Shown here in pieces: positions 30,194-31,988 of a DNA stretch of 38,043 bases. The notes beneath the pieces were generated by a model. The model saw only the letters and a program-made list of their open reading frames with translations. It did no database searches and was not told the origin of the DNA. The number at the start of each line of letters is the position of its first letter. Within the stretch, counting starts at the first letter, position 1. Source of the stretch: Escherichia phage ECO95 1-6-1. The DNA is taken from the sequence record OR845259.1; one strand, 5' to 3'. The translations under genes were made by a program, and so were the position numbers.

Positions 30194-31209
30194 TGTGTTG
30201 CCTCTACATATAGCTGATTTGCATATTGAATAAGTGCTTCACGGTCAGAATCAGTGATGTCTGGAATTGCATTAATATACTCTTCCATTAATGTCTGAAG
30301 CGATTGAACTTCAACTTCTTCACTGTCATCTGACTCGACAGAGTTATCAATCTTTGACACAACTCGTAATGAATGCACAACTTTCTCTAGTTCAGATTCG
30401 AACTTCGTCAGATTTTTGTCTACTTCAGTTACTATAACACGTACTGATAGATTTGTAAAATCTTTATAGTCAATTTTTCCTTTAAATGGATAATGAATTC
30501 TACGATGCCAGGTAGTGTTGTTTGGAATAAATTCCATTCGTTCTGTTTCTGTATCAAACATCCAGAACCCACGAGGGTCATTCTCGTCACCTGCAGTTAG
30601 TGTCCATGGTGTCCCAATATATCTGACGTTAGCAGCCTCAGAAATAGTATGGAAGTGACCAGACCACACCTCTTTATAAGTCTTAAGGAAATCAGGTTCA
30701 AGACCGTGAGATTTCATTCCTTTATAAAAATAAAATCCATTCAGCTCCCAGTGACCAACACAAAAAGAAGCAGATGAAGTTTTGATGTGTTCAAGAATTT
30801 CACCAGTATTTTCTTCACACATCCAAGGAATTAAATCAATCAAACATCCGTCAAAATCTACTGTAGTAGGCTTATCATATACTTTAACATTAGGGTATTT
30901 AGCCAAAAGCTCAGTAGAAGCATTTGGATGCATTACATTTTTGTAGTGGAGATCGTGATTTCCTACAATAGTATGTAATGTGATTCCAGCGTCATCAAGC
31001 ATTTGAACTATTTCACGAGCAAACTCCATAGTTTTATGTGTGATTGCTTTTCGCACATCAAAAATATCACCATATTGAATCCATACAGTAATTCCATTTT
31101 TCTTAGAATATTCTATCGCTTGCTTAATTCCATCAATTTGAATACCGCGAATCCACTCATCATCAGCTTTAACGCCTAAATGCCAATCACCCAAGTTTAG
31201 TATTTTCAT
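30190..31209 (-). CDS. 47: recombination nuclease subunit gp47 (Mre11/SbcD-like, 339 aa)
   Basis: ORF track; phosphoesterase motifs; size as T4 gp47. Confidence 0.95.
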   Translation of the reverse strand: MKILNLGDWHLGVKADDEWIRGIQIDGIKQAIEYSKKNGITVWIQYGDIFDVRKAITHKTMEFAREIVQMLDDAGITLHTIVGNHDLHYKNVMHPNASTELLAKYPNVKVYDKPTTVDFDGCLIDLIPWMCEENTGEILEHIKTSSASFCVGHWELNGFYFYKGMKSHGLEPDFLKTYKEVWSGHFHTISEAANVRYIGTPWTLTAGDENDPRGFWMFDTETERMEFIPNNTTWHRRIHYPFKGKIDYKDFTNLSVRVIVTEVDKNLTKFESELEKVVHSLRVVSKIDNSVESDDSEEVEVQSLQTLMEEYINAIPDITDSDREALIQYANQLYVEATQ

Positions 31210-31810
31210 GGTGTCTTTTCCATCCCAATTTAGCTGCTTTTGAAACTAGTTCTTTAATTTTTCCTTTTGTCCATTCAGGACCAGGAGGTTCATGACATAA
31301 CATTTGCTTAACTCCGTTATTATACCATTTTTTACCTTTATTATGTGATGAAGCTTTAAATTTATTTGACCTTCCTTTTACATAACCTTCTGGAATATAA
31401 GGTAAAAAGGCAGATTTTCCTGTTAATGGATCATGTGAATGTATATTTCCTTTACAATTATGAGAACCATATAATGGATGATTTTGTCCTTTATTATCTC
31501 TTCCAAATGAACCTTTTGGAGCAGCATATGACATATTAAAGAATAATGGATTTTTAACTGCATCGTGCAATCGTTGATAATATAACTCGCATTTAATAGC
31601 TTCTTCACGCGTATCAAATTCAGCTAAAATGCATGAATCAAATAAATGAGGATTATCTGAAAGCTCTTTATTATAAATTTTCTTATACTTTTTAGATAAA
31701 ACTGACCCATGATATCCAGCTAAATGCCTATCTAAAGATGTAGATCCAATATAAAAAGGAGGAAGTTTATCTCCACTATATATGGTTAAATAAGTTATAT
31801 ATTTTTTCAT
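31187..31810 (-). CDS. putative free-standing GIY-YIG homing endonuclease (Seg-like, 207 aa)
   Basis: ORF track; N-terminal KYITYLTIY...FYIGSTS with downstream Arg and Glu in GIY-YIG-like spacing; basic Gly/Lys/His-rich C-terminal region. Confidence 0.6.
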   Translation of the reverse strand: MKKYITYLTIYSGDKLPPFYIGSTSLDRHLAGYHGSVLSKKYKKIYNKELSDNPHLFDSCILAEFDTREEAIKCELYYQRLHDAVKNPLFFNMSYAAPKGSFGRDNKGQNHPLYGSHNCKGNIHSHDPLTGKSAFLPYIPEGYVKGRSNKFKASSHNKGKKWYNNGVKQMLCHEPPGPEWTKGKIKELVSKAAKLGWKRHHENTKLG

Positions 31811-31947
31811 ATATCAAGAACCGTCATTGAAATGCAAAATAAAATTATTGAAATAAATCCATTTGGAGTGCTAAAGAACCCAATCCAACATGCTCTAGTG
31901 AATAGATAAAACGCTAGAAAAAGTATCACATATCCAAGAAATATCAT
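31807..31947 (-). CDS. hypothetical small hydrophobic peptide (46 aa)
   Basis: Hand translation MIFLGYVILFLAFYLFTRACWIGFFSTPNGFISIILFCISMTVLDI; GGAG 9 nt upstream; ATGA overlap with the GIY-YIG ORF start; overlaps a promoter-like -10. Confidence 0.3.
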   Translation of the reverse strand: MIFLGYVILFLAFYLFTRACWIGFFSTPNGFISIILFCISMTVLDI

Positions 31948-31970
31948 TATATCAAACTCCGTATAAAGCT

Positions 31971-31988
31971 AAAGGGCCGAAGCCCTTT
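31971..31988 (-). other. UUCG-tetraloop GC hairpin after a-gt
   Basis: AAAGGGC-UUCG-GCCCUUU on the minus strand; overlaps the a-gt stop codon. Confidence 0.5.

Follow-up and report, generated by a model that had tools for sequence, protein, structure and literature searches.

The Seg proteins of phage T4 carry out intronless homing, with localized marker exclusion, and the seven seg genes of T4 sit at sites other than the junction of genes 47.1 and 47 (Edgell et al. 2010, PMC2988022). SegF and SegG cut the endonuclease-free allele in a neighboring essential gene, the break is repaired from the carrier, and the adjoining sequence is co-converted (PMC2988022). SegA, which is encoded between uvsX and beta-gt in T4, has been demonstrated to cleave uvsX. 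I-TevI (catalytic domain, PDB 1LN0/1MK0) is encoded within an intron, and its C-terminal part contains a zinc finger, NUMOD3-like elements, and a helix-turn-helix. Here, we describe an open reading frame (ORF) of 207 amino acids (aa) that lies between genes 47.1 and 47 in Escherichia phage ECO95 1-6-1 (sequence record OR845259.1). We analyzed a stretch of 38,043 nt from this phage, which we will call the window. From the protein's sequence, its predicted structure, and comparative analysis, we consider it likely that the ORF encodes a Seg-type free-standing ("intronless") homing endonuclease that is specific for the start region of gene 47.

Like SegA, the 207-aa protein is of about 210–220 aa, is free-standing, is encoded in the orientation of its neighbors, and has a basic C-terminal half. 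It differs from SegA in that the two share no BLAST-level similarity, and in that the gene in the window is at 47.1/47 and has a different, unclassified C-terminal half. Cleavage by SegA has been demonstrated, and cleavage by the 207-aa protein is predicted. Sequence similarity to I-TevI is insignificant. The mechanism that we propose below is that of SegF and SegG. In short, this is an uncharacterized, probable endonuclease of a well-known type, at a site that is unoccupied in T4, and not a new kind of system. We searched the literature and found no paper that describes an endonuclease gene at 47.1/47, but GenBank records do annotate the gene.

The window is a T4-like (Tequatrovirus) segment, and its best match over this region is Escherichia phage Ec_MI-02 (99.1%). 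On the minus strand, the order of the genes is a-gt (31987–33189), a 46-aa ORF (31807–31947), the 207-aa ORF (31187–31810), and gene 47 (30190–31209). The features of the locus are:

31187..31810, minus strand: putative Seg-type GIY-YIG endonuclease ORF, 207 aa, unnamed (ORF call; PHROG 10820 at 1e-94; 170 homologs; ratio of nonsynonymous to synonymous polymorphism, or pN/pS, of 0.06)
31511..31810, minus strand: predicted N-terminal GIY-YIG nuclease domain, residues 1–100, with Y7, Y20-I21-G22, R28, E75, and N92
31190..31510, minus strand: basic C-terminal half, residues 101–207, presumed to bind DNA and specify the target (isoelectric point, charge, and conservation; without a Pfam match)
31210..31810, minus strand: 601-bp insertion relative to T4, T2, and RB59 (alignment with T4 and insert lengths across loci)
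31192..31201, minus strand: four synonymous changes in gene 47 codons 3–6, a candidate for self-immunity or for a tract of donor DNA (they travel with the insert)
31187..31209, minus strand: 23-nt stretch that the endonuclease ORF and gene 47 share (sequence)
31804..31810, minus strand: ATGAAAA that opens the insert (the same 7 nt open gene 47, at 31203–31209)
31807..31947, minus strand: gene 47.1, resident, encoding a 46-aa predicted membrane protein (PHROG 6693 at 1e-30; annotated as gp47.1 in T4 and RB59)
30190..31209, minus strand: gene 47, encoding an Mre11/SbcD-like recombination nuclease subunit, the presumed target (annotation of identical or nearly identical genes; Metallophos Pfam on homologs)
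31970..31989, minus strand: GC-rich hairpin with a UUCG loop just past the stop codon of a-gt, which bounds the upstream unit in the manner of a terminator

The original prediction for this locus, which was made from the DNA sequence without database searches, described a 207-aa ORF that begins with MKKYITYLTIYSGDKLPPFYIGSTS and shares 23 nt (31187–31209) with the start of gene 47, and this is what we find. It also described a hydrophobic 46-aa ORF that is joined to the 207-aa ORF by an ATGA overlap. Indeed, the 46-aa ORF is strongly hydrophobic (grand average of hydropathy of 1.73), and its 3' end (31807..31947) is ATATGA, with the 207-aa ORF beginning at the ATG. The ATG that overlaps the stop codon of 47.1 is that of the endonuclease gene in the window and that of gene 47 in T4. 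ATGAAAA is present at the start of the insert and at the start of gene 47, so that a direct repeat bounds the 601 bp. The TGA stop codon of the endonuclease ORF sits within the GGTGAT of gene 47 (codons 7–8), which we take to be the Gly-Asp codons of phosphoesterase motif I of gp47.

Proteins of the GIY-YIG superfamily have "GIY" and "YIG" motifs on adjacent beta-strands, about 10–11 residues apart, followed by a catalytic arginine on the first helix after YIG, a metal-binding glutamate, and a downstream asparagine. In the 207-aa protein, the GIY motif is I5-T6-Y7 and the YIG motif is Y20-I21-G22, and Y7, Y20, I21, and G22 are each kept in 53 of 54 homologs. The spacing between the motifs is 13 residues, which is slightly longer than the 11 residues in I-TevI. 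The original prediction had pointed to an arginine and a glutamate at GIY-YIG-like spacing, and both are there, as R28 and E75. E75 and N92 are invariant (54/54 homologs); E75 aligns with E75 of I-TevI and with the glutamate of SegA, and N92 aligns with the asparagine of SegA. At the position of R28, the candidate for the catalytic arginine, the 54 homologs have lysine (31), arginine (13), asparagine (7), or another residue (3).

Structure comparison and profile comparison point the same way as these motifs. The AlphaFold2 model of the 207-aa protein has a mean predicted local distance difference test (pLDDT) score of 85, with strands predicted at residues 4–11 and 19–25, and its fold matches are GIY-YIG proteins, with the alpha/beta fold of that superfamily. 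The second-best structural match is PD-T4-3, a GIY-YIG restriction enzyme that is specific for 5-hydroxymethylcytosine. Along with PD-T4-3, the comparison with GIY-YIG nucleases lists the N-terminal domain of UvrC, Eco29kI, and T4 EndoII. When we used Foldseek to compare the model to viral models (BFVD), the matches were GIY-YIG, Seg-like, and group-I-intron endonucleases. A profile of the N-terminal domain aligned to T4 SegA with a probability of 87.8% (hhalign; E = 3e-6, 73 columns, 29% identity), and the alignment takes in YxG(S/T)xS, the Seg-typical GYxGS, the glutamate, and the asparagine. When we compared this profile to all ORFs in 1–50 kb of T4 with hmmsearch, SegA was the only hit, and a weak one. 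Of the other enzymes that we compared (SegF, I-TevI, and I-TevII), none showed significant profile similarity to the family of homologs, and the 207-aa protein did not match T4 records in tblastn at E = 1e-3. The original prediction had proposed a Pfam search for GIY-YIG, and it does give a match (PF01541, residues 4–84, E = 3e-4), but at 21.4 bits this is below the gathering cutoff of 22.6 bits. Weak Pfam matches to GIY-YIG were also found for 15 of the 54 homologs (best E = 2.4e-5). NCBIfam had no match for the 207-aa protein. The best PHROG match, phrog_10820 (1e-94), is labeled "HNH endonuclease", and there is a weaker match to a PHROG family that is labeled "homing endonuclease". As judged by profile alignment and predicted fold, the 207-aa protein is a GIY-YIG protein of the Seg type that is distantly related to the T4 Segs, with SegA as its nearest T4 relative.

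The C-terminal half (residues 101–207) is basic and rich in Gly, Lys, and His, as originally predicted: it has an isoelectric point of 9.97, a net charge of +13, and 17 Lys, 13 Gly, and 8 His. It is predicted to form beta-hairpins and one helix and contains the motifs NHPLYGSHN, KGKKWYNNG, PEGYVKGR, and PEWTKGK. A search for NUMOD motifs had also been proposed. Pfam (E ≤ 1) gave nothing for the 207-aa protein besides GIY-YIG, and in particular no NUMOD1, NUMOD3, or NUMOD4, although 27 of 54 relatives have NUMOD3 in their C-terminal part. Most of the closest homologs, which have about 200 aa, keep this C-terminal half at full length, while distant relatives have NUMOD3 modules instead. Similarly, relatives at other genomic loci have the same N-terminal domain with different C-terminal modules, often NUMOD3. 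If the C-terminal half determines the target, one would expect just this combination of a conserved nuclease domain with a locus-specific C-terminal half.

When aligned with T4, the window has an insertion of exactly 601 bp, with 47.1 on the left and gene 47 on the right collinear with T4. Of the 11 loci that carry the insert, 10 have a length of 601 here, and the 16 loci without it have a length of 0. At an identity of at least 95%, 68 phage records contain the insert, while its flanks are found in about 520 Tequatrovirus records. About one in eight T4-like coliphages has the insert. In other words, the gene is a free-standing, strain-variable insert that is placed exactly between the stop codon of 47.1 and the start codon of gene 47. 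This bears out the original view that the gene is a free-standing cassette that varies between strains. Its location had been given as between gene 47 and a-gt, which is the correct interval, but the exact place is between 47.1 and 47. The 46-aa ORF, which had been described beside the cassette with its position and overlap right, is not part of it. This ORF is found at 95–99% identity in about 500 records, including T4, where it is annotated as gp47.1, a predicted membrane protein; so it is the resident gene 47.1 and lies outside the insert.

The 207-aa ORF is above chance, since it has 170 database homologs, the PHROG match at 1e-94, and a low pN/pS. The pN/pS of 0.06 was obtained from 10 intact copies, and third codon positions account for 22 of their 30 variable sites; this implies that the protein is maintained by selection. 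The endonuclease gene is under strong purifying selection. There are also damaged copies: those in ZCEC15, ESh36, and KMB22 are frameshifted, and those in KNP1 and KNP5 are internally deleted.

To see how the insert relates to its flanks, we compared 11 Tequatrovirus sequences that carry the insert with 16 that lack it, including 1400 nt upstream and 2900 nt downstream. Since IMG/VR yielded few Tequatroviruses (28 gene 47 loci in all), these 27 sequences are from mixed sources: the window, individual GenBank records, and six IMG/VR loci. Over the 4.3 kb of flanks, the sole fixed differences between the two groups are four synonymous changes in codons 3–6 of gene 47 (nt 9 T>A, nt 10 T>C, nt 15 T>C, and nt 18 A>G, at 31201, 31200, 31195, and 31192 of the window). 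Net divergence between insert-bearing and insert-free sequences is about 0 across the entire upstream flank. Along gene 47, it is 0.16 for nt 1–25, about 0.006 for nt 26–50, 0.02–0.10 from nt 51 to about nt 300, and about 0 beyond. This asymmetric linkage into gene 47 resembles the co-conversion tracts of SegF and SegG. However, SegF and SegG cut hundreds of bp from their insertions, while the linked changes in the window are within 18 nt, which is nearer to intron-encoded enzymes.

The start of gene 47 is bimodal in a larger set as well: among 586 records, the first 60 nt are at least 95% identical to the window's type in 78, and about 500 have at least 4 mismatches. Nine records have an empty 47.1/47 junction with all four changes (among them SHFML-26, UGKSEcP1/2, PBM-1, EPIMAM01, Ec_YwIITB1, BCPEco_001, and BCPSen_003), and in SHFML-26, the insert-linked haplotype continues further into gene 47. 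RB14 has the change at nt 10 alone of the four. ERS-1 is the single insert-bearing record with a T4-type start of gene 47, and its endonuclease ORF has four 1-nt indels. This record carries little weight either way, since it is flagged as UNVERIFIED and 1-nt indels are numerous in it, also within a-gt. We also asked whether the endonuclease ORF stays open because of the four changes. It does not depend on them: in that frame, the T4-type sequence reads HENFKFR*, with the same TGA.

The four changes are compatible with the capture of donor DNA at the original insertion, with the right crossover in the conserved GGTGATTGGCA. They are also compatible with self-immunity of the carrier, and these two readings are not mutually exclusive. 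As none of the changes is more than 18 nt from the insert, linkage to it is by itself no proof of selection. It is possible, but on balance doubtful, that the enzyme recognizes about the first 20 nt of gene 47 and that the four synonymous changes are the determinant of self-immunity.

In at least seven other T4-like lineages, the gene that immediately precedes gene 47 encodes a homolog of the 207-aa protein, with 50–80% identity: Mosigvirus (QL01-like), Jiaodavirus KP185, Gelderlandvirus SEA1, vB_EcoM_005, Aeromonas phage L9-6, Serratia phage LC53, and a 171.7-kb metagenomic phage. The homologs from KP185 (annotated as a "homing endonuclease"), SEA1, QL01, LC53, and L9-6 belong to the same clade, are 50–80% identical over their full length, and adjoin gene 47, although some of the copies in other T4-like phages have 40–100 more C-terminal residues than the window protein. 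The ORF overlaps the ATG of gene 47 in five of the seven lineages (the exceptions are vB_EcoM_005 and LC53). In SEA1, the endonuclease ORF stops at a TGA within GGTGAT, as in the window, while those of KP185 and the QL01-like phage stop earlier. Furthermore, among the 28 closest cluster representatives, 19 have -EN-x(0-5) at their C-terminus, which is the out-of-frame reading of ATGAAAAT. The QL01-like, KP185, and SEA1 phages have no 47.1 between the endonuclease gene and its upstream neighbor, so that in these phages the endonuclease gene replaces 47.1 and is not inserted after it.

There is suggestive evidence from sequence comparison that the start of gene 47 has been recoded elsewhere in the clade. 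One Mosigvirus carrier differs from four insert-free relatives at nt 9, 10, 12, 15, and 18 of gene 47, although its state at nt 10 is also seen in one of the four. But recoding is not general, as SEA1 and its insert-free relative are identical in this region. Separately, we noticed that in ST0 and DCP548, which are classified as Mosigvirus, the gene 47 protein is 86% identical to that of the window, versus about 71% for other Mosigvirus loci. The first 33 nt of gene 47 in ST0 and DCP548 are identical to T4, with no a-gt or 47.1 upstream, which suggests that the 5' region of gene 47 was exchanged between genera.

We propose that, in a mixed infection, the enzyme would cut the allele that lacks the insert, and that the cut would fall within or close to the 5' end of gene 47 or the 47.1/47 junction. 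The break would be resected, and UvsX-dependent repair from the carrier would copy the endonuclease gene along with adjoining gene 47 sequence, giving localized marker exclusion. What protects the carrier would be its interrupted junction, the four silent changes that are linked to the insert in codons 3–6, or both. We infer cleavage, the target site, immunity, and homing from these comparisons and from the described Seg systems. As for expression, we found no late promoter (TATAAATA) near the endonuclease gene; the lone match to TATAAATA in the window is at 12307–12314 on the minus strand, just downstream of gene 56. A scan for sigma-70-like promoters gave fewer sites than in shuffled sequence, and none was convincing. 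The counterpart of the hairpin at the end of a-gt is annotated as a terminator in Yersinia phage fPS-90 and NBG2. The endonuclease gene is probably expressed by read-through and translational coupling within the 47.1–47 operon.

Several observations weigh against a homing endonuclease that is specific for the start of gene 47. The Pfam score for GIY-YIG falls short of the gathering cutoff, and sequence searches of PDB, both with the protein and with a profile of 54 sequences, found nothing relevant, so that only the fold comparison succeeded. The position of the canonical arginine varies (K, R, or N) across the homologs. SEA1 and its insert-free relative are identical at the start of gene 47, and so recoding is not universal. 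The perfect linkage of the four changes could reflect mere physical linkage of captured donor DNA. Insert-bearing genomes share a common gene 47 haplotype and mostly have one a-gt haplotype, but a common gene 47 haplotype is also expected from common descent, and this clustering of haplotypes fits homing and descent with recombination alike. Finally, the synonymous diversity (pS) of 0.089 within the insert implies long residence and not a recent sweep.

Some of these observations would also fit a formerly mobile gene that has become an accessory gene with vertical inheritance, such as a domesticated nuclease or DNA-binding protein. Its patchy distribution would then be due to descent in a single Tequatrovirus sublineage, ordinary recombination, and occasional loss, and not to continued homing. 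The shared gene 47 haplotype with mostly one a-gt haplotype, and the long residence implied by pS, are expected under this explanation, and a pN/pS of 0.06 also fits a function that benefits the phage. However, beyond about 300 nt the flanks are undifferentiated from those of insert-free genomes. The same clade is found at the same junction in several genera, with differing upstream neighbors, which requires repeated site-specific acquisition, and there are degenerate copies, as expected of a selfish element. We think that a domesticated accessory gene is unlikely. We give a lower probability still to a nuclease for competition or exclusion, which would cut co-infecting relatives or other DNA elsewhere, with its position by gene 47 being incidental or regulatory. 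PD-T4-3 being the second-best structural match would fit with this, and the cut sites of free-standing endonucleases can be hundreds of bp or more away from the endonuclease gene (PMC2988022). But the 207-aa protein does not match any PADLOC defense model, and the association with the start of gene 47 across the clade, together with the clade-specific C-terminal half, favors locus-specific targeting.

A DNA-binding protein without catalytic activity that controls the expression of gene 47, by analogy to the autorepression of I-TevI, seems very improbable. The ORF does overlap gene 47 and is translationally coupled to it, and the canonical arginine is not invariant, but E75, N92, and both tyrosines are invariant or nearly so, the window protein has R28, and most T4-like phages express gene 47 without this protein. 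Lastly, RefSeq and PHROG 10820 label the family as an HNH endonuclease, and we give this almost no credence. Besides the labels themselves, nothing favors it; no HNH family matched in Pfam (E ≤ 1) or in NCBIfam, so the label is wrong, and both the predicted fold and the conserved motifs are those of GIY-YIG proteins. The mislabeling is systematic (RefSeq NC_054916, NC_054924, NC_054925, and others, as well as PHROG 10820), and GenBank labels for relatives vary between "HNH endonuclease", "homing endonuclease", and "hypothetical protein".

The window and its relatives also differ at other slots. In T4, mobB, which encodes an HNH homing endonuclease, lies between a-gt and a-gt.2 (769–1563 of our T4 locus, L031). 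In the window (33190–33430), as in T2 and HY01, about 65 nt separate a-gt from a 57-aa a-gt.2-like ORF (33256–33429). Since the mobB slot is empty in the window and filled in T4, adjacent endonuclease slots are filled differently between phages. There is a second endonuclease slot between 46.1 and 46, where several Tequatroviruses have an 855-nt "mobD-like" homing endonuclease gene (at about 4464–5318 in loci L038 (KIT03), L037, L046 (LYE-01), and L054 (SHFML-26)). T2 has split remnants of the mobD-like gene (L032, 4464–5316), and the slot is empty in T4 and in the window, where 29743–30006 abuts gene 46. The program-called ORF for gene 46 itself (28064–29746, minus strand) has 560 aa and a GTG start and overlaps 46.1, and the start of gene 46 is annotated inconsistently among related records (1683 nt or, with a later start, 1641 nt).

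Further away, between uvsX and gene 42, the window has a 282-aa ORF of the TET-associated glycosyltransferase family (19181–20029, minus strand; Pfam TAGT, 1e-9), where T4 has segA and beta-gt. This arrangement appears to resemble the beta-alpha-glucosyltransferase locus of T2 and T6. Gene 56 (12318–12929) and gene 61 (13105–14133) are separated by 175 nt (12930–13104). In T4, dam (780 nt) lies between 56 and 61, and segF lies on the other side of 56; both appear to be absent from the window. Also, the homolog of gene 61.2 (14660–15301, minus strand) matches Pfam AdfA (anti-DarT factor A) at 2e-137, and so the early region includes an anti-defense gene.

If the start of gene 47 is the recognition site and the four changes confer immunity, then three allele classes of a homing cycle would be present at one Tequatrovirus site: a susceptible empty T4-type allele (about 440 records), an occupied recoded allele (about 68, with a few decaying), and a resistant empty recoded allele (9 records, such as SHFML-26), which could stem from precise excision between the ATGAAAA repeats. 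The Mosigvirus carrier, whose gene 47 is recoded in parallel at these codon positions, would have evolved immunity independently. And the target DNA would encode the start of motif I of an Mre11-like nuclease that itself resects double-strand breaks.

With the 47.1/47 junction, the T-even phages have a further occupied site among those mapped for free-standing homing endonucleases, and the clade appears to follow the start of an essential recombination nuclease gene across several phage genera. Natural alleles that are susceptible, occupied, and putatively resistant are available in sequenced, cultivable phages: the BASEL collection has carriers (such as AndreasVesalius, PaulHMueller, and FriedrichMiescher), and T4 and T2 lack the insert. 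In phage cocktails, genes of this kind would bias the inheritance of markers around gene 47 and a-gt during mixed infections.

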